From Escherichia coli (GTDB taxonomy: Bacteria; Pseudomonadota; Gammaproteobacteria; Enterobacterales; Enterobacteriaceae), in the NCBI RefSeq assembly GCF_050920415.1, contig NZ_CP169309.1: a stretch of 64,000 nt of DNA; one strand, given 5' to 3'. Position numbers and translations under genes: made by a program. How positions within the stretch are numbered: position 1 is the stretch's first letter; each line of letters opens with the position of its first letter. The notes beneath the pieces are model-generated. The model did not search any database. It had not been told where the DNA came from and saw only the letters and a list, made by a program, of their open reading frames with translations. Shown here in pieces: positions 48,567 through 57,831 of this stretch.

Positions 48567-49862
48567 TTAATTTTTCACCACCTCGTTTTGGGGCATGGTT
48601 GGGGCAAACTCGCTTAGCTGTGTATTTAACAGGGCTACCTGTGCATTATTGTTTTCAGACATCCATTTCCCGTATACCTGAAACACCATTTGCGCATCTG
48701 CATGTCCCATCTGGTTTGCTATGAATGCCGGGTTGGCACCGGCTGTCAACGACCAGCAGGCATAAGTATGTCTCGACTGATATGATTTGCGGTGGCGGAG
48801 GCCAGCGCGCTTTATCGCTGCGTCCCACATCTGCCTTATTGAGTCAACGGTAAAATGGTCACCATAATTTTTTACTCTCGCTGACACTTCAGGTTGAAAA
48901 ACAAAGGTGCATTTTTGTTTTTCTGTTCTGCCGAACTCTCTGAGGTGAACGTCAATAATATGTTCTTTGCTCAGCCTCGTTAGTGTCATCTGACTCCTGA
49001 GAGCGTCGATTGCAGGCTTGATAAGGTGAATTACCCGATTGGTACCAGCCTGTGTTTTCGGTACCGTAAAACGATCTTTTGCTAAATTTCTCCTGATCAT
49101 CATTGTTCCATTTTTCAGATCTATGTCCTCCCACCCAAGCGCACACAGTTCACCAGGGCGAATGCCTGTATAAACAGAAACACACCATAAATTTTTGGCC
49201 TGCTGATTTCTGCAGGCGTCGATAAGACGGATAAATTCCTCCCGTGAAAGAGGATCAGGAATGGTTCTTGATTCCTTTAATGGCGAGATCCCCTTAAACG
49301 GATTATCTGCCAGGTAACCGTTATCAACACCAAACTGGAACACGGCGTTAAGATTTGTCATGTAATTATTTACAGTTACAGCCGATCTCCCTGGTTGTGT
49401 AACAATATAGTTACTTTTGGGGATCTGGTATCCAGTCAGTAGCTCTTTACGAACCTCCAGTAATTTTTCTTTATTAATCGATGAGGCAAGATTTTTTTCA
49501 CCGATTATGCTCAGGATATTTTTGATGACGGCACGGTATGTGTTGAGTGATGCTTTGGCGACTTCAGTTTCTTTCAGTGCCAGAAATTTTTCAGCCAGTT
49601 CTTTTATGGTTAAATCTTGTCGGGCCTCACCAAATTTTTCCAGATTGCGTGAGGAGGGAAACTGTTTTGCATAGTCGAAAACACCAGTTTTTATTGCGTA
49701 ACAAACAGAGGAGCGTAGTTCACCTGCAACGCGCCTGTTTTTTGCTGTGTCAGGAACCCCCAGATTTTCCCTGACTCTTACGCCTTTATAAACAAACCAG
49801 ATACGTAATTTCCCTCCATGGTTTTCCACGCCTGTCGGATATTTCATTTCAACTTCTCTCAT
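48567..49862 (-). CDS. Prophage tyrosine integrase (site-specific recombinase)
   Basis: C-terminal catalytic region with RHTYACW (His-x-x-Arg), GHADAQM and VYGKW (Tyr nucleophile); phage Int N-terminal arm-binding-type domain. True start may be the internal ATG giving MKYPTGVENHGG. Confidence 0.85.
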   Translation of the reverse strand: MREVEMKYPTGVENHGGKLRIWFVYKGVRVRENLGVPDTAKNRRVAGELRSSVCYAIKTGVFDYAKQFPSSRNLEKFGEARQDLTIKELAEKFLALKETEVAKASLNTYRAVIKNILSIIGEKNLASSINKEKLLEVRKELLTGYQIPKSNYIVTQPGRSAVTVNNYMTNLNAVFQFGVDNGYLADNPFKGISPLKESRTIPDPLSREEFIRLIDACRNQQAKNLWCVSVYTGIRPGELCALGWEDIDLKNGTMMIRRNLAKDRFTVPKTQAGTNRVIHLIKPAIDALRSQMTLTRLSKEHIIDVHLREFGRTEKQKCTFVFQPEVSARVKNYGDHFTVDSIRQMWDAAIKRAGLRHRKSYQSRHTYACWSLTAGANPAFIANQMGHADAQMVFQVYGKWMSENNNAQVALLNTQLSEFAPTMPQNEVVKN

Positions 49863-50205: not shown

Positions 50206-52677
50206 TTAAGAATCAGCCTGACTCGGGATCAGTTTTTGCCAGATAACTGAAACGTATTTTGCCTGGTAACGGGCGTCATCAAGTGCATTATGGCGCTCAC
50301 CTTCGAATGGAATAGCCGTTCTGGCATCGAAGTCTATGGCTTTCCCCAGCTCAACGATTGTGCGTACATCGCGATCGTTGTAGTAACGCCACGGGCAGGG
50401 GATCCCCTGCCGTTCGTATGAACGGCGCAAAATCGTGTTGTCGAAGTTGGCTCCATTTCCCCAGACCTGAACAAAAAATTCACCGGAGTTTTCGTCGATA
50501 AATTCCCGCAATTGTAACAGTGCATCATCTAACGGGATTTCATCGGTCATAATGGCAGATTGCGCTTCGCGTGATTGCTTAAGCCACCATTTAATGGTGT
50601 CCCGATCAATGACTCCGCCAGCAGTTTCCAGATCGATAGTCTTACTAAATTCCGGTCCCATATCTCCGGTTTGCGGATCGAAAAATATTGCACCTATTGA
50701 GATAATCGGGGCATCAGGATTTTTTCCCATGGTTTCAAGGTCGATCATTAGATGGTCACACGTCCTGCTGGTGGATGTGATAACGTGATGACCGTTCACC
50801 GCAATTAAGGGATCTGCCGTCTCGCCAGTTTCATTATTGCTGGCGTGGTCCTGAGCGCTGCCAGCATTCTCCTTGTGTGGATGTTCAGCGCCTTCCATTT
50901 CCTCCGGATCATTTTCCTGAACTTCAACCTGATTCTCTTCATCGAATGTTTCTTGGTATGTTGCGTCGCCCATCACCGCACCACAATCAGGGCAGTTGCC
51001 GCCGCCGGTCTGACCGCATGCGGTGCAGACTTTTTCCGCTTCCTGTTGCGCTACTGGCTCAGGTTGTTTCGTTTCTGGCTCGTTTTGTAACGCATTTGGG
51101 CTGTTTTGTTCTGCTTTCTGGTCGTTCTGTTCCGTTTCTTGCTGGTTCTGATTCACTGAATCGCGGGTTTCAATCCCCTTCACCCATTTCGGATCATTCG
51201 GGTCGCTAATCCCTGCAACAAATTCACCACGTGATACAGCAAGCAACTTATCGGCGTCAGGCTGGCTGATATTGGCTGCCTGCATAATTTTGTTTACTTC
51301 GTCAGCGGTAACTTTTACCGGCTCTGGTTGTGCGGTCGTGTCAGATGCACCAGTATTTTGTTGTGAACCTGAGTATGTACCGTTTTTACGGGCAAAATAT
51401 TCTTCTTTCGTGATTTCAGTAGCCCCTGCAGTCAGCGCCTTATTCAGACCAGAAAGTTTGTTTGCGCGACCATATTTTTCGCCATCCTTGTCGGTGAAGA
51501 GGAAGTAGAACGGCCCCTCACGCTCTACAGATGGTTCGACTTCCACTTTGCATTCGGTTTTTTCGTTGTCCGGAATTGCCGTTTCCACTGCATCAGTTTC
51601 TGGTACTGGCGACGAGAGAGTATCAGTTGCGCTCTGATTTCTTCCTTCATCTTCAAACACGCCCTTTGTAGTCAGGTATTCAGTAATGTATTTGTTCAGT
51701 GTCACAGGGTCTTTGTGAATGTCGATCGGACGTTCACGGACAAGGCCAAAAATAGTCTGGCGGTCGTAGCGAAGGGCATCAGGCTGTTTGCGCATTGATG
51801 CCGAGATACGCTTCCAGTCTTCGCGGTCGTTGTCGATAACTTCATTTTTTGCCCAGCGATGGATGCTGCCGTCAATGTTTCCGGCATCCACATCACCAGG
51901 CCAGAGAGCGTAGGCCAGTTCGTCATCCAGTGTTTTCCATGTCTGCTTGTATTCGCGATGAGTGGCAGCAATGACCGGGCTGATTTTTCCTGTTGAATTG
52001 TCAGTGTACTGTTGATTGGCTCTGGCGCGGGCGAGATCAACAACAGACGTGTATTTTCCGGTTTCCTTGCGTTCACCTTCGCGACGTTTTTTCCAGATGC
52101 GCATCTCTGCCTGAATTTCGGGCCATTTAGCACCAGGAATACATTTATGCTTAACCCACCCAATGGCGTGCAACTTAAGCTCCGGATACATGGCGTTAAC
52201 TTCTGGCATTTTCATCAACGCTTCAACGATATGTCCGTCGAATGTTGCCATGTCTTCCTGCAACAATTCCTGTGCGCTAATAACCATATCAACGGTGATG
52301 TTTTCACATGTGTCGAACTTAACCAGGACCGCGTTCTGTACTTCAGGGGACAGCTTGTCAAAATTGACGTTCATCGGATCGGATTCTGGTTCGACCGGGA
52401 CAAAGGAAGCGCCTTCCTCATCCCAGCGGTTTTCCAGCATATATTCGGTATCCCAGGAGTCGATGGCAGGGCGGGGCATGCCGGGTTTATCCTCGCAGAC
52501 AAGAAATTTATAAGCGCAGTCCTGAGCAGCCGGATATTGCTCCAGGAATTGCCAGGTAAATTTGGCTCGGGCGCGACGTTCGTCGCCGGCTTCAATGGCA
52601 GTGGCTACAGCGACTGCACCTTCTTCCTTTATTGCCTGTTCGTCCGGAATGGCGGCGCAAATAAAGACTTTACTCAT
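50206..52677 (-). CDS. Prophage RecE-like protein (823 aa): acidic/Gln-rich linker with CxxC...CxxC zinc ribbon and C-terminal DEDDh-type 3'-5' exonuclease motifs
   Basis: Linker ...DPNDPKWVKGIETRD...CTACGQTGGGNCPDCGAVMGDATYQETFDEE... resembles the RecE linker as I recall it. C-terminus has Exo I motif MIDLETMG, Exo II-like FVQVWGNGANFD and Exo III HNALDDARY. Confidence 0.6.
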   Translation of the reverse strand: MSKVFICAAIPDEQAIKEEGAVAVATAIEAGDERRARAKFTWQFLEQYPAAQDCAYKFLVCEDKPGMPRPAIDSWDTEYMLENRWDEEGASFVPVEPESDPMNVNFDKLSPEVQNAVLVKFDTCENITVDMVISAQELLQEDMATFDGHIVEALMKMPEVNAMYPELKLHAIGWVKHKCIPGAKWPEIQAEMRIWKKRREGERKETGKYTSVVDLARARANQQYTDNSTGKISPVIAATHREYKQTWKTLDDELAYALWPGDVDAGNIDGSIHRWAKNEVIDNDREDWKRISASMRKQPDALRYDRQTIFGLVRERPIDIHKDPVTLNKYITEYLTTKGVFEDEGRNQSATDTLSSPVPETDAVETAIPDNEKTECKVEVEPSVEREGPFYFLFTDKDGEKYGRANKLSGLNKALTAGATEITKEEYFARKNGTYSGSQQNTGASDTTAQPEPVKVTADEVNKIMQAANISQPDADKLLAVSRGEFVAGISDPNDPKWVKGIETRDSVNQNQQETEQNDQKAEQNSPNALQNEPETKQPEPVAQQEAEKVCTACGQTGGGNCPDCGAVMGDATYQETFDEENQVEVQENDPEEMEGAEHPHKENAGSAQDHASNNETGETADPLIAVNGHHVITSTSRTCDHLMIDLETMGKNPDAPIISIGAIFFDPQTGDMGPEFSKTIDLETAGGVIDRDTIKWWLKQSREAQSAIMTDEIPLDDALLQLREFIDENSGEFFVQVWGNGANFDNTILRRSYERQGIPCPWRYYNDRDVRTIVELGKAIDFDARTAIPFEGERHNALDDARYQAKYVSVIWQKLIPSQADS

Positions 52678-52757
52678 TTTGTTTTAACCTCATTACAGAT
52701 TTAAGGGTGAACAAATCCCTGCCATTGCTGGCATATAAAAATGAAACCGGATATTAA

Positions 52758-52961
52758 TTACGGTGCTGTTTTAAGTCCTGCCGGGATTTCGTTATTGTCC
52801 ATGCGAATAACTTTCTCAACCGGATAACAGTTGCCGGGAATTTTCTGTTCCGCTGCGGCAGCCATGCATTCTTTCATTGAGTCATGTATACCAATAACAA
52901 GATCAACTGGCTCGCCCGTATTAAGAAAAACCGTCAGAACGAGTGCAAATGCTGTATTCAT
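52758..52961 (-). CDS. Hypothetical small secreted/membrane prophage protein (about 67 aa)
   Basis: ORF with signal-like N-terminus MNTAFALVLTVFLNTGE... immediately upstream of the recE-like gene; the track ORF extends to 53015. Confidence 0.35.
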   Translation of the reverse strand: MNTAFALVLTVFLNTGEPVDLVIGIHDSMKECMAAAAEQKIPGNCYPVEKVIRMDNNEIPAGLKTAP

Positions 52962-53898
52962 TGCCAGTATCCTTTTTGCATCAGACGTAAACGGGCCAGC
53001 ATTGATACAATGCATATTTGATTTAATAGCTCCCGTTCGTGTTTTCTCTTATTAATGGCATCTTCAGTAAATACAGGGTTACTGATTCTGACACCAATTT
53101 CAAAACAACCTTCAGACGTATTAACGTTTGGTAATAACGTTTCCATTATCGCGTCCTCAACAATGAATTTTGTGATACGGTGCCTGGTGCCTCCAGGTGA
53201 CGTTAACCAGTTAACAATTAACGCCGGATACAGAGAACCCACCCATAAGAACCAATACGGAAGTCAACTGGCCTTTTTAACTGTTCCGCGTGCGCTTAGC
53301 CGCATTCACCGCATCACAAAATTCACTTTAAAAAGGGCGGCAGAGCAGTCACGGAGTAAAACTGATACCGCCAAACGTCACCAGAAAATTGATAACAGAG
53401 GGCGTTGCAGCGGGGTTGCCACTTAAGCGTATGGTCAACCTGACAACCCGGTGTCCTCAACGGGGAAGGAATAACCCCGCCATACTTACCGCCGCGCCAT
53501 TTCGCGGATTGCCACAACCGGAAGCGCACAGACGAAGATGTCAGTGGTACACAACAAAGGGAGGAATGACTTCGCCGTGCGCTTTCGCGTTATGCCCTGA
53601 CTTTTCAGGGATATATCCTTTCAGTAAACTGTTTGTGCCGGATTCTTATCCGTGTCCGGCGCACGACCACGCGCTGTCACGTGTGGTCTCCATTCTCAAC
53701 CAGTAACCTCAATGGAGGATAAAATTAAAATGGTCAGCAAACTAAATTAGACTCGCTGGAAGATTCATTATTAAACAGCGCGTTTAAATTATATTCTTGA
53801 ATGTTTTGGGGATAACCTTGCTGCTGAGGAAGGCTATCCAAACCATGTCGATGGTTTCGAAGCGATATATCTTTATCTATCCCGTAAACATGGATGGA

Positions 53899-54300
53899 CT
53901 ATTTCACAGTGTCGTTTAATGCCACTGGATGATATTCGCCTTGCTCTTTCGTTAGAGCTATCAGGGTGGCGACTCCCTGATGATGCAAAGATTGACGACC
54001 ATCATTCTCACGATGATATAAGTTGTTAAGTTCCAGTAGTTTGGCTTTTGCAATGGCCTCTACAGATTTCCAGAATTTGTGGGGGTCTGTACTCTCTTCC
54101 TGTTCGTCAGGAATGTTATTGTCCTCAACAGAAACAGAATACAGTCCGGTAAACGCATCGCGCACATTACGAGCCATATTATCAATGTCTTTTTTCGTTT
54201 CAGCTTCTAATGCAACTTCGTTCAGACGTTGACGAAGTGTATGTGCTGCAATTTCTTGGATTTCTTTTGGTAACTCTTTAAATTCCATAGTCAACCTCAT
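53899..54300 (-). CDS. Hypothetical prophage early-left protein (about 130 aa)
   Basis: ORF translationally coupled to the upstream 76-codon ORF (the two share position 54300); acidic helical protein; no family recognised. Confidence 0.45.
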   Translation of the reverse strand: MRLTMEFKELPKEIQEIAAHTLRQRLNEVALEAETKKDIDNMARNVRDAFTGLYSVSVEDNNIPDEQEESTDPHKFWKSVEAIAKAKLLELNNLYHRENDGRQSLHHQGVATLIALTKEQGEYHPVALNDTVK

Positions 54301-54530
54301 CAGTCAGTGTTTCTGGCTAACCAGCGATGCGCGCCAGTTTCGGTTTTAAACGTTTTGCTTTTGGTATATGTCATCGCGGTGAACGTACCGTCCTGGTTGG
54401 GGAACACGCCACATACCAGAGATTCGCTGTTGCCAAGATCGATAGTATCCATGCTGACCTCATTTCCCCTTAACGCCGGGGTGGCGGAACAAAAACCTGC
54501 TGCATAGTTAAAGTTGAACCCTGCCGTCAT
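54300..54530 (-). CDS. Hypothetical small prophage protein (50-76 aa)
   Basis: First ORF after the putative early-left operator; possible internal start MDTIDLGNSESLVCGVFPNQDGTF. Confidence 0.4.
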   Translation of the reverse strand: MTAGFNFNYAAGFCSATPALRGNEVSMDTIDLGNSESLVCGVFPNQDGTFTAMTYTKSKTFKTETGAHRWLARNTD

Positions 54531-54620
54531 GTTCTTACGCCTCGGGCTGGCTACTTAACCCCTGACCACTGCCTGGTAACTCGAAGTATTGCCCTGCGTT
54601 CTGTGGGGCGGGGTGGTATA

Positions 54621-54650
54621 CTATAAAACTAAATCTATTTAGTTTTATAG
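54621..54650. promoter_or_regulatory. Perfect 14-bp-arm palindrome CTATAAAACTAAAT-CT-ATTTAGTTTTATAG; candidate OL-type operator for the CI-like repressor
   Basis: Exact 30-bp inverted repeat between the repressor gene and the early-left ORFs; a related half-site (CTAAAA...TTTTAG) recurs in the cI-cro intergenic region. Confidence 0.55.
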
Positions 54651-54671
54651 TCAAGCGCGATCTAGATATAT

Positions 54672-54698
54672 TTAAAAAAAGGTCGACAAAGCCGACCT
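54672..54698 (-). terminator. Candidate rho-independent terminator downstream of the repressor gene
   Basis: Minus-strand hairpin AGGUCG-loop-CGACCU followed by U7, about 25 nt after the repressor stop. Confidence 0.5.
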
Positions 54699-54721
54699 CT
54701 GATTGAAAAACAAAGTGGAAG

Positions 54722-55372
54722 CTATAGGCTGAACTGCACACCTTTTGCTACAGCAACAATTTTACATTCAGGTGTCAGTAAGGACGATTGATAGCGAGGA
54801 TTGAGGGGGCTTAAATACACGAGTTTTCCGTCGATGACTAATTTTTTTATAGTCATAGATGGTTCGTTTGTAAGCGGATCTGGGACTATTACAGCGACGA
54901 TACTACCATTTTTATATTTTTCTCTAGGCCTCATGATCACTGTGGCACCAACCGGAATGCTTGGCGACCCTGATGGGTTGTGCATAGTGTCATCAGGCAT
55001 TGAAACGGCAAAATCCCCCTCCTTGACGTCAAAGAATGTGGTGATTCTGTCGGCATTTCCCATAGTTTTCTCTCCTTCTAAAATTAGGAAAGAAATTGCT
55101 TCCCCCCATGAAAGATAGGGGATTTGGGTGCCTGAATTGTTCTGCACAAGGGTAGGTTCAGTAGACGATACTCCATATAGGAGATAGGACTCAGTAGTTC
55201 CTAGTGCTTGGGCTAATTTACTAAGAGCTTTGCTACCGGGTTCGTTTAGGTCTTTCTCCCAGTACCCTATAGTTACCCCTGTTACGCCAGAAAGCTTGCC
55301 CAGTTCGACTTGGGTCAGTCCCTTGTCTTTTCTGAGTCTCTTAAGCCTAATGCCAAGGCTTTCCATCATCAT
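54722..55372 (-). CDS. Prophage CI-like repressor: XRE-type HTH plus S24 (LexA-like) autopeptidase domain
   Basis: N-terminal HTH (LKRLRKDKGLTQVELGKLSGVTGVTIGYWE) and C-terminal S24-like region (...GSIVAVIV...KKLVIDGKLVYLSPLN); divergent from a cro-like gene. Confidence 0.85.
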   Translation of the reverse strand: MMMESLGIRLKRLRKDKGLTQVELGKLSGVTGVTIGYWEKDLNEPGSKALSKLAQALGTTESYLLYGVSSTEPTLVQNNSGTQIPYLSWGEAISFLILEGEKTMGNADRITTFFDVKEGDFAVSMPDDTMHNPSGSPSIPVGATVIMRPREKYKNGSIVAVIVPDPLTNEPSMTIKKLVIDGKLVYLSPLNPRYQSSLLTPECKIVAVAKGVQFSL

Positions 55373-55464
55373 CTCCCGTGAATTGAATATAAATTATTTT
55401 AGATTGCATTGACCTAAAAAAAATTATCCTTTAATCTAAAAATACTTAGTTTTAGGAGGGTGAA
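55373..55464. promoter_or_regulatory. Divergent promoter/operator region between the cI-like and cro-like genes
   Basis: AT-rich 92-bp spacer with partially palindromic sites TTTAGATTGCATTGACCTAAA (55398-55418) and CTAAAAATACTTAGTTTTAG (55436-55455); AGGAGG RBS precedes the cro-like start. Confidence 0.5.
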
Positions 55465-55692
55465 ATGCGAGTTGATGAACTTGTCCAGTTTTTTGGCTCT
55501 GTTCAGAGAGTTGCCGATTTTTATGGGATAACCCGTGAAGCTATATACATGTGGCGCAAACGTCCTGGTGAAATAGTTCCCAAGGGGAGGGCCGCGGAAG
55601 CTGCCGCATACTCCAAGGGAAAATTATCTTTGAACCCAGAACTTTACAAAAAGAAGGATAACACCTTGAACGAAGGAAAGAATGATTCATGA
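55465..55692 (+). CDS. Cro/YdaS-like small HTH regulator (75 aa)
   Basis: Small protein with HTH-like segment VQRVADFYGITREAIYMWRKR; first gene of the rightward operon opposite the repressor. Confidence 0.7.
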   Translation: MRVDELVQFFGSVQRVADFYGITREAIYMWRKRPGEIVPKGRAAEAAAYSKGKLSLNPELYKKKDNTLNEGKNDS

Positions 55693-56137: not shown

Positions 56138-56962
56138 ATGAGCAGCAAGCTTCATGGTCTTGTCTGGGAAGGGTGCGCCTTCACCGGCATGATCTTATCC
56201 AGGGTGGCAGTAATGGCTCGCCTTGCAGACTACAGCAATGACGAAGGTGTGTCATGGCCTGCAGTGGAGACCATTCGTCGTCAGATTGGGGCAAAGAGTG
56301 AATCAACGGTTAAAGCGGCGATAGCGGAACTGGAAAAGAACGGCTGGCTGACGAAGGAGGAGCGTAAGGTCGGTGGGCGTAATGAAAGCAATATCTACCG
56401 CCTTAATGTGGAAAAACTCGAAGCAGCAGCTGAGGCGGCGCGTGAGGCATATAAACCGAAAAGAAAAATTAGCCCGGCAAAAAATGACCCGTTAACAGTT
56501 GACCAGTCAAATATTGCCCCCTCAACGGTTGACCCGTCAAATTTTGATGGATCAACCGTTGGTAAAAAACAGCCGGTTAGGGGGGCGATGGTTGGCCCCG
56601 ATCCGTCAGTATTAAAACCTGATCCGTCAGATAAAAGATCTTTTCGTCCGGAAGCTTCGCAACCGGACCCGCAGACGGCTGAACAGGATTTTTTAACCCG
56701 ACATCCTGATGCGGTTGTGTTTAGTGCAAAAAAACGTCAGTGGGGAACTCAGGAGGATTTGGCATGCGCACAGTGGATCTGGGGGCGAATCGTGAGTCTT
56801 TACGAACAGGCCGCCAGCGATGATGGCGAGATCACCCGACCGAAAGAACCCAACTGGACAGCATGGGCCAATGACGTGCGCATAATGCGGATGCTGGATG
56901 GCAGAACTCACAGACAAATCTGTGAACCGCCCCGGGTTTCCTGGAGAGTGTTTTATCTGTGA
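56138..56962 (+). pseudogene. Phage replication-initiator (O-like, N-terminal winged-HTH) gene, 5' part; interrupted by an IS element after codon 261
   Basis: N-terminus ...AVMARLADYSNDEGVSWPAVETIRRQIGAKSESTVKAAIAELEKNGWL is typical of phage replisome-organiser proteins. The frame ends inside the IS inverted repeat; the original frame resumes at 58235 and stops at 58414. Confidence 0.65.
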
Positions 56963-56964
56963 AC

Positions 56965-57831
56965 TCAGGCTGCCAGATCATTGTTTCCGATGGAAGCATA
57001 ATAAGCTTTTTCTGCTTCTGCCGGAGGAGTATGGCCCAGCCTTCCCAGCAATCGTCGATTGTTATACCAGTCCACCCACGTGAGTGTGGCCAGTTCCACT
57101 TCTGCACGGTTTTTCCAGCTCTTACGGTGTATTACCTCCGCTTTGTAAAGACCATTGATGCTCTCAGCCATCGCGTTGTCATACGAGTCGCCTGTACTCC
57201 CTGTTGATGCCAGCAGTTTTGCTTCTTTTAGTCGCTCCGTATAGGCCAGTGACACATACTGAGAGCCTTTATCGCTGTGATGGATGGTGCCAGACGGACG
57301 ACGGGCCCACAACGCCTGCTCCAGCGCATCCAGCACGAATGTCGTTTCCATAGACGATGAGACCCGCCACCCCACGATGTATCCGGCAAACACATCAATG
57401 ATGAACGCCACATAGACGAAGCCCTGCCATGTGCTGACGTAAGTAAAATCAGCCACCCACAGCTGGTCAGGACGTTCTGCCACGAACTGACGGTTTACGC
57501 GGTCACCTGTGGCAACGGTTTTCCGGCTGACGGTAGTGCGGACCTTTTTACCCCGGAGAACACCGGCAAGTCCCATAACCGCCATGAGGCGCGCCACTGT
57601 ACATCTGGCCACCCTGATTCCTTCCCGTAACAACTGACGCCAGACTTTACGCACACCGTACACCTGATGATTTTCATCGTATACGCGCTGTATCTCTCTC
57701 TTCAGCCAGTCATCGCGCTGCGCACGGGCACTGCGTTTATCAGGATGATGCCGCTGCTGCTGACAATGGTAATACGTTGACGGGGCAATATGCAGTTCAC
57801 TGCATACCGGTCCGACCCCCGTACTGCTCAC
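56965..57831 (-). CDS. IS3-family transposase OrfB (DDE integrase core)
   Basis: DDE core ...LWVADFTYVSTWQGFVYVAFIIDVFAGYIVGW...HHSDKGSQY...DSYDNAMAESINGLYKAE. In this copy the body is in the same frame as orfA rather than the -1 frame. Confidence 0.85.
   Translation of the reverse strand: MSSTGVGPVCSELHIAPSTYYHCQQQRHHPDKRSARAQRDDWLKREIQRVYDENHQVYGVRKVWRQLLREGIRVARCTVARLMAVMGLAGVLRGKKVRTTVSRKTVATGDRVNRQFVAERPDQLWVADFTYVSTWQGFVYVAFIIDVFAGYIVGWRVSSSMETTFVLDALEQALWARRPSGTIHHSDKGSQYVSLAYTERLKEAKLLASTGSTGDSYDNAMAESINGLYKAEVIHRKSWKNRAEVELATLTWVDWYNNRRLLGRLGHTPPAEAEKAYYASIGNNDLAA

Follow-up and report, generated by a model that had tools for sequence, protein, structure and literature searches.

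A dicF–dicB locus with structured precursor and leader RNA in the early-left operon of an Escherichia coli prophage

The window, the whole 64,000-nucleotide stretch of Escherichia coli DNA analyzed here, includes prophage genes that lie between a repressor gene and an integrase gene. A first-pass annotation had flagged 883 nt among them (53016–53898) as non-coding. The flagged DNA has matches at 100% identity in E. coli chromosomes, and in every record among the matches listed the sole annotated feature beneath the match is "dicB: cell division inhibition protein DicB". In the NCBI annotation of these identical records, the space from dicB to the hypothetical gene upstream of it contains no gene. 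Of 5426 complete E. coli genomes, 4733 have a match to the locus, and the median number per genome is two. Read from right to left, an identical record gives the order repressor, DUF1391, hypothetical gene, gap, dicB, DUF1482, exonuclease, excisionase and integrase. The genes around the interval are the following.

54722–55366, LexA-family/cI-type repressor gene, 216 aa, with an S24 peptidase domain (annotation of the identical record)
54300–54452, minus strand, ydfA-like DUF1391 gene (Pfam DUF1391, 94.8 bits; annotation of the identical record)
53899–54288, minus strand, upstream hypothetical gene, 129 aa as annotated, with an ORF that reaches 54300 (annotation of the identical record)
52958–53146, minus strand, dicB, cell-division inhibitor, 62 aa (Pfam DicB PF05358; annotated in identical E. 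coli records)
52758–52961, minus strand, gene at the ydfD position, DUF1482, 67 aa (Pfam DUF1482, 80.1 bits; annotation)
50206–52677, minus strand, exonuclease gene, 823 aa, intact, downstream of dicB
48567–49862, integrase and prophage end (annotation), about 4 kb from the flagged interval

A Cro-type gene diverges from the repressor gene in the annotation of the identical record. The operon begins with the DUF1391 gene, downstream of the repressor gene, and K-12 ydfA is likewise a DUF1391 gene. The 129-aa hypothetical protein has no significant Pfam family, and its gene occupies the place of ydfB/ydfC. The interval is almost certainly the dicF–dicB part of a dicBF-type early-left (PL-like) operon on the minus strand of a lambdoid prophage, a locus that is textbook material, already known and explained. 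The 823-aa exonuclease has a C-terminal Rv2179c-like 3′-5′ exoribonuclease domain (PF16473, 226 bits). To the right of the repressor gene, an IS3-family transposase ORF (56965–57831, minus strand; rve and HTH_21 domains) abuts a phage replication-initiator-like gene (region 56138–57831). Since this gene encodes 274 aa here versus 320 aa in an otherwise identical record, it was apparently truncated by the IS insertion, which may have left the prophage defective.

The interval began at 53016 because the first-pass annotation had taken a mechanically called 85-aa ORF (52758–53015) at face value. The annotated DUF1482 gene, which this ORF over-extends, has its start in overlap with the stop codon of dicB (ATGA). 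Such an overlap is a usual mark of translational coupling between small phage genes. In its first 131 nt the interval holds the 5′ part of dicB. Its product matches Pfam PF05358 over residues 1–62 of 62 with 130.8 bits (cut-off 27) and is identical to K-12 DicB at 55 of 62 positions (89%). DicB blocks division through MinC. With the 131 nt of dicB removed, the true non-coding gap is 53147–53898 (752 nt), and about 520 nt of it align with the untranslated ydfC–dicF–dicB spacers of the K-12 Qin prophage. The statement that the interval holds no convincing ORF is thus sound for the gap, where there is no annotated gene and the internal mechanical ORFs (123 and 105 aa on the plus strand, 68 aa on the minus strand) have no Pfam match, and wrong for the part taken by dicB. 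The description of the interval as GC-rich suits its core (53387–53665, 53.8%) and the DicF sequence (55.8%) but not the whole, which at 45.8% lies below the window mean of 48.9%. The first-pass annotation had disregarded the strand, missed dicB and left DicF unrecognized.

It had nonetheless listed a structured RNA among its options, and this option proved right. The gap contains the DicF small RNA together with a structured precursor and leader RNA, and the following elements are used below.

53666–53898, minus strand, lineage-specific AT-rich intergenic joint, 233 nt, 40.3% GC, between the hypothetical gene and the conserved dicF leader
53637–53689, minus strand, two predicted upstream hairpins (53689–53681/53673–53665 and 53660–53652/53645–53637) at the 5′ edge of the conserved leader
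53513–53594, minus strand, 22-bp helix predicted by RNAalifold (53594–53570 with 53537–53513) with a hypervariable loop (53569–53538)
53388–53524, minus strand, presumed 5′ part of the 190-nt DicF precursor, with a predicted multi-branch fold that includes the GC segments pointed out in the first-pass annotation (94–100% identity, 105 loci)
53335–53387, minus strand, DicF small RNA, 53 nt (Rfam RF00039; the 53-nt extent follows the K-12 annotation)
53147–53334, minus strand, structured dicF–dicB spacer, 188 nt, which is the dicB 5′ leader (MFE −78.7 kcal/mol, z = −4.87)

The Rfam scan that had been proposed as a check identified DicF (RF00039) at 53386–53335 on the minus strand with 76.7 bits (gathering threshold 48; E = 2.3e-16), covering model positions 1–52 of 52. 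It was the only strong Rfam match in the scanned region, 51500–55500. The sequence, including the 5′ target-pairing region, is identical to K-12 dicF, and the K-12 copy also scores 76.7 bits. As in the Rfam family, a single-stranded 5′ part, which pairs with targets, is followed by a 3′ part that forms a Rho-independent terminator hairpin (53372–53336) and then UUUUU; we found no difference in the small RNA itself. The terminator was absent from the output of a simple promoter/terminator scan with a loop limit of 3–8 nt, probably owing to its 9-nt loop and the internal loop in its stem. The same scan found no PL-like promoter on the minus strand. DicF lies inside the dicBF-type operon, upstream of dicB, in synteny with K-12 Qin and with phage Tritos, where a "DicF antisense sRNA" is annotated at the matching place. 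DicF is Hfq-dependent, binds Hfq and represses ftsZ, xylR, pykA and manX, and O157 strains carry several copies (PMC5069750; PMC9438474). Among the related loci described next, four (L053, L054, L084 and L096) have a DicF variant with the same 5′ seed region and another terminator hairpin (GGCGGCATCTGTTT--GCCCATGAACTGATGTCCGCC).

A comparative set was assembled with an exact 19-nt DicF pattern, which gave 120 viral-contig loci and, from these, 105 distinct 1-kb neighbourhoods. Identity to the window across the 105 loci is 94–100% over 53527–53147, save for two patches (53566–53538 and 53286–53247), and 67–91% in dicB; selection by the exact 19-mer biases the set to close relatives and inflates conservation near DicF. 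Per column, dicB carries a minor-allele load of about 17, against 1.9 for DicF, 2.5 for the spacer and 5.5 for the leader. Leader substitutions are spread evenly over the codon phases (526/503/504), with no periodicity, and of the indels in the non-coding parts, 79–93% have lengths not divisible by three. In these loci, chosen via DicF, the conservation, the lack of codon periodicity and the non-triplet indels argue against a decaying gene and for selection on RNA.

A decayed or frameshifted phage gene that has lost its reading frame had been another of the first-pass options. The three mechanical ORFs could be taken for its remnants, and K-12 and Tritos have ydfC where the window has 53666–53898, so that replacement or loss of a gene is conceivable there. 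Against this, the ORFs belong to no Pfam family, and the substitution phases and indel lengths are those given above. Conservation of the non-coding parts exceeds that of the adjacent dicB several-fold, contrary to what decay would produce. In K-12, the curated annotation shows the homologous DNA as untranslated, and NCBI marks no pseudogene among the records listed. We consider a decayed gene very improbable for the stretch as a whole, and for 53147–53665 this reading is largely refuted.

Folding of the minus strand was compared with that of shuffled sequences and gave z = −3.5 for 53320–53700 and z = −4.9 for 53130–53340. Structures were predicted module by module; when RNAalifold was run on the whole 580-nt block, the result mixed in long-range pairs in competition with the terminator of DicF. 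Of the alignment cells at all 177 predicted pairs, 95.4% are paired, versus 35–47% when the partners are slid. For the 22-bp helix and a 27-bp helix in the spacer the figure is 97.9%, and the only changes are one-sided and wobble-compatible; two-sided changes are concentrated in the upstream hairpins and the loops. Folding across homologues, another check proposed at the outset, therefore yielded well-paired helices with a core almost free of two-sided covariation. Because the core helices are nearly invariant, covariation cannot prove the fold, which is supported only by folding energy and by wobble-compatible changes.

At the 5′ edge of the leader, six of eight pairs in one upstream hairpin and six of seven in the other have changed on both sides (103 loci). 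Part of this two-sided change may represent module replacement instead of point covariation. Downstream of these hairpins, the 22-bp helix is paired in 97.9% of the cells of 100 sequences; eight of its pairs vary, always in a wobble-compatible manner. Its loop is the least conserved patch (37% identity), and the whole stem is deleted in three loci (L054, L058 and L096). A multi-branch leader is predicted by RNAalifold at 53498–53401. It is followed by a predicted hairpin (53397–53390/53383–53376) whose AU-rich loop contains the 5′ end of DicF.

The complementary GC segments quoted in the first-pass annotation do exist (GCGGGGTT at 53410–53417 and AACCCCGC at 53473–53480, with starts 63 nt apart), at about the level expected by chance: by a rough estimate, about 1.3 perfect 8-nt inverted repeats within ~100 nt would occur in ~900 nt. 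Mutual pairing of the two 8-mers is kept in 96.5% of the cells from 103 homologues, with no discriminating covariation. We rejected this pairing as a specific element, as the optimal folds use other nearby G/C partners and the alternatives fit equally. A separate observation concerns the leader segment GGCGCGGCGG (53498–53489), which can pair either with 53413–53401 or with the 3′ half of the DicF terminator (53343–53335). In the ensemble of a 198-nt precursor, pairing of GGCGCGGCGG with the terminator 3′ half has a weight of 0.70 versus 0.19 for the terminator, and the MFE structure retains the terminator. The model suggests that this could be an antiterminator-like alternative; we treat it as a thermodynamic curiosity.

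Published work on K-12 allows the predicted helices to be set beside known processing events. The K-12 dicBF operon has no internal promoter and gives rise to 190-nt and 53-nt DicF species (PMC10448788). RNase III makes the 5′ end of the 190-nt species, and the 53-nt form needs RNase E (PMC10448788). An RNase III site is numbered 813/814 in the same paper. The 3′ end of DicF is formed by the intrinsic terminator or, on full-length transcripts, by RNase III, which gives a 72-nt form (PMC5069750). We converted these lengths to window coordinates. The 5′ end of the 190-nt species would lie at ~53524, in the 3′ arm of the 22-bp helix, and the 3′ end of the 72-nt form at ~53316, in the 5′ arm of the 27-bp helix; both cut positions rest on published RNA lengths, and the first was mapped from length alone. 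On this model, the two published RNase III cuts would fall within the two long predicted helices, and the 22-bp helix is a likely RNase III substrate that would give the 190-nt species its 5′ end.

In the spacer, the predicted 27-bp long-range helix (53334–53307 with 53182–53154) encloses conserved hairpins at 53303–53288, 53225–53199 and 53197–53183 and a variable arm at about 53286–53227. The ribosome-binding sequence of dicB (GAGGA, ~53158–53154) lies at the base of this helix. The helices were reproduced by RNAalifold on 103 loci, with 97.9–99.9% of the cells paired. Their pairs are nearly invariant in these 103 close copies, and 8 of 32 pairs show compensatory changes in 14 diverse copies.

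The spacer matches all 206 positions of the Rfam model STnc100 (RF02076), a family of prophage small RNAs, with a score (35.5 bits, E = 2.9e-5) that stays below the gathering threshold of 47, and we do not count it as a member. Other copies from K-12, Rac-SA53, pPE4, P7 and Kp4865-4 score 34.4–43.8 bits, all likewise sub-threshold. What the spacer appears to share with STnc100 is a predicted multi-branch fold that a long helix closes, together with the conserved CACCUGGAGGCACCAGGCACC hairpin. It differs in its variable arm and in its setting; it is a dicB leader inside an operon and not an annotated stand-alone small RNA. Elements of the spacer type, with 72–89% identity, occur elsewhere directly 5′ of several other genes. 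They precede kil/kilR in Rac-SA53, pPE4, Shigella phage 75/02 Stx, phiSTEC1589 and 683R6 (the phiSTEC1589 gene is annotated "cell division protein FtsZ", and we read it as kil) and terB/tciA in P7 and D6. The element is also present in Shigella phage POCJ13, and a Klebsiella phage has a copy in an unannotated record. The copies located were as follows.

53147–53334 of the window, minus strand, dicF–dicB spacer
1474–1663 of L124, spacer-element copy
1474–1658 of L125, spacer-element copy
1501–1616 of L126 (phage P7), spacer-element copy
1477–1685 of L127, spacer-element copy
about 601–769 of L128–L131, spacer-element copies

Rac-type prophages provide a close parallel. There, nearly the same spacer follows a DicF-like terminator hairpin and stands directly upstream of the division inhibitor gene kil/kilR, which replaces dicB. 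In Rac-SA53 the DicF-like part has diverged to 41.1 bits, below the gathering threshold, and does not have the K-12 seed. Phage P7 also has, at 1304–1388 of L126, a near-threshold tRNA-Sec-type Rfam match (46.6 versus 47 bits) between annotated tRNA genes in the ban operon; the corresponding position in D6 is annotated as an unusual tRNA-Ser (UGA).

In a 2026 preprint, STnc100 is connected with PasD and with phage regions, and PasD is placed near Q and the lysis genes, not in the region considered here (bioRxiv 10.64898/2026.05.13.724894). DicF and dicB are not mentioned in that preprint (bioRxiv 10.64898/2026.05.13.724894), the 2023 operon paper does not discuss the structure of the dicB leader, and in the literature searched we found no description of the spacer as a cis-acting leader.

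These comparisons raise the question of whether the 188-nt spacer is, besides DicF, a structured RNA of STnc100 type in its own right, one that controls translation or stability of dicB or acts as a second small RNA. The full-length sub-threshold matches in the window, K-12 Qin, Rac-SA53, pPE4, P7 and the Klebsiella phage (34–44 bits, E from 1e-4 to 6e-7) speak for it, as do the folding z-score, the compensatory pairs among the diverse copies and the location of the dicB Shine-Dalgarno sequence within the base of the 27-bp helix. Moreover, the element also occurs apart from a typical (above-threshold) DicF, and in every gene context inspected it stands directly 5′ of a gene. On the other side, every one of the STnc100 matches is below the Rfam gathering threshold, and pairing of the ribosome-binding site is weak, consisting of U-A and U-G pairs with the terminator U tract. 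Conservation of the spacer could merely reflect an RNase III site, and our search for expression or processing data on the spacer found only the 72-nt DicF end. We therefore regard an independent role of the spacer as possible, though the balance of these points leans against it.

A broader proposal goes one step further, and we advance it with still more reserve, as rather unlikely on present evidence. The spacer may be one of a larger group of related STnc100-like leaders that stand 5′ of unrelated division-inhibiting or toxic phage genes and act as RNase III-gated switches. Such leaders would precede dicB in Qin-type, kil/kilR in Rac- and Stx-type and terB/tciA in P1-type phages. The closing helix would both set an alternative 3′ end for the upstream small RNA and mask the downstream ribosome-binding site. 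The notion of the spacer as a shared structured leader of division-inhibitor genes is a lead, not a result.

Upstream of the conserved leader the picture changes. The joint, 53666–53898, is non-homologous to K-12 and to phage Tritos, both of which have ydfC-type DNA there; the alignment of the window with both runs from ~53665 through dicB, with DicF and most of its flanks invariant. Only 27 of the 5426 E. coli genomes have the full-length joint, which is unannotated there, and searches with it returned one weak phage match and no annotation. Its folding exceeds chance expectation only slightly (z = −2.74). Within it lie a 10-bp hairpin (GGATAGCCTT...AAGGTTATCC, minus strand, ~53835–53806) and, on the plus strand, a GGAGG-spaced 6-codon ORF near 53716–53750. 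The joint looks like a mosaic joint left by an exchange of ydfB/ydfC-type genes for the 129-aa gene.

The sharp loss of homology to other prophages at ~53665 is also what would be expected if the stretch were a recombination or attachment site, or a hotspot of module exchange, and not an expressed element. The hypervariable patches at 53566–53538 and 53286–53247 resemble mosaic joints as well, and the spacer is followed by dicB, kil or terB, depending on the locus. Yet these patches map to apical loops in the predicted helices, the conserved parts are accounted for by DicF and its processing signals, and the integrase and the prophage end are ~4 kb away. Mosaic joints are ordinary in lambdoid phages and insufficient alone to indicate a dedicated recombination site. 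On these points of homology, variability and gene position, this explanation is not supported, and we give it the least credence of those considered.

The identity and position of DicF and dicB, the synteny and homology with K-12 Qin, the conservation of the non-coding DNA and the helix predictions all come from the present analysis. In Qin the gene order is dicA, ydfA, ydfB, ydfC, dicF, dicB, ydfD, ydfE. The window has the same order and strand logic: a repressor, a DUF1391 gene, a long untranslated leader, DicF, the spacer, dicB, an overlapping small gene and an exonuclease-type gene. DicF is identical, DicB is 89% identical and ~520 nt of non-coding DNA can be aligned. The differences lie around this core. 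The Qin repressor is DicA, whereas that of the window is the LexA/cI-type protein. In place of ydfB and ydfC the window has the single 129-aa hypothetical gene and the unique joint. Relative to Qin, it has a 14-nt insertion and other sequence in two variable loops. K-12 ydfE is a pseudogene interrupted by IS2, whereas the exonuclease gene of the window is intact. Because the repressor is not DicA and the genes between ydfA and dicF differ, regulation may differ from that in K-12.

Transcription and processing in the window are assumed to follow K-12, and the processing enzymes, RNA species and targets of DicF invoked here are carried over from the K-12 literature. On that analogy, the transcript would start downstream of the LexA/cI-type repressor gene and run leftwards on the minus strand through the ydfA-like gene, the hypothetical gene, ~510 nt of untranslated structured RNA, DicF, the 188-nt spacer, dicB, the gene at the ydfD position and the exonuclease gene. 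DicF would be cut from this polycistronic RNA, with no transcription of its own. RNase III would cleave the long upstream helix to give the 190-nt species, which RNase E would trim to the 53-nt small RNA. The 3′ end would be made by DicF's own terminator or, on read-through RNAs, by RNase III cutting the second long helix to leave the 72-nt form. Mature DicF would then bind Hfq and repress ftsZ and several metabolic mRNAs, and DicB would block division via MinC.

The locus illustrates two traps in reading prophage DNA: a short gene, dicB, was masked by a longer overlapping ORF call, and a small RNA precursor resembled "empty" DNA. The effects of DicF and DicB, namely a block to host division, a rewiring of sugar metabolism, protection against some phages and modulation of EHEC virulence, are all published. 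If the recurring STnc100-like leader proves functional, it would link an orphan small RNA family to a cis-regulatory role. Should the leader act as the switch outlined above, the STnc100 "sRNAs" would be fragments processed from the leaders of such genes.
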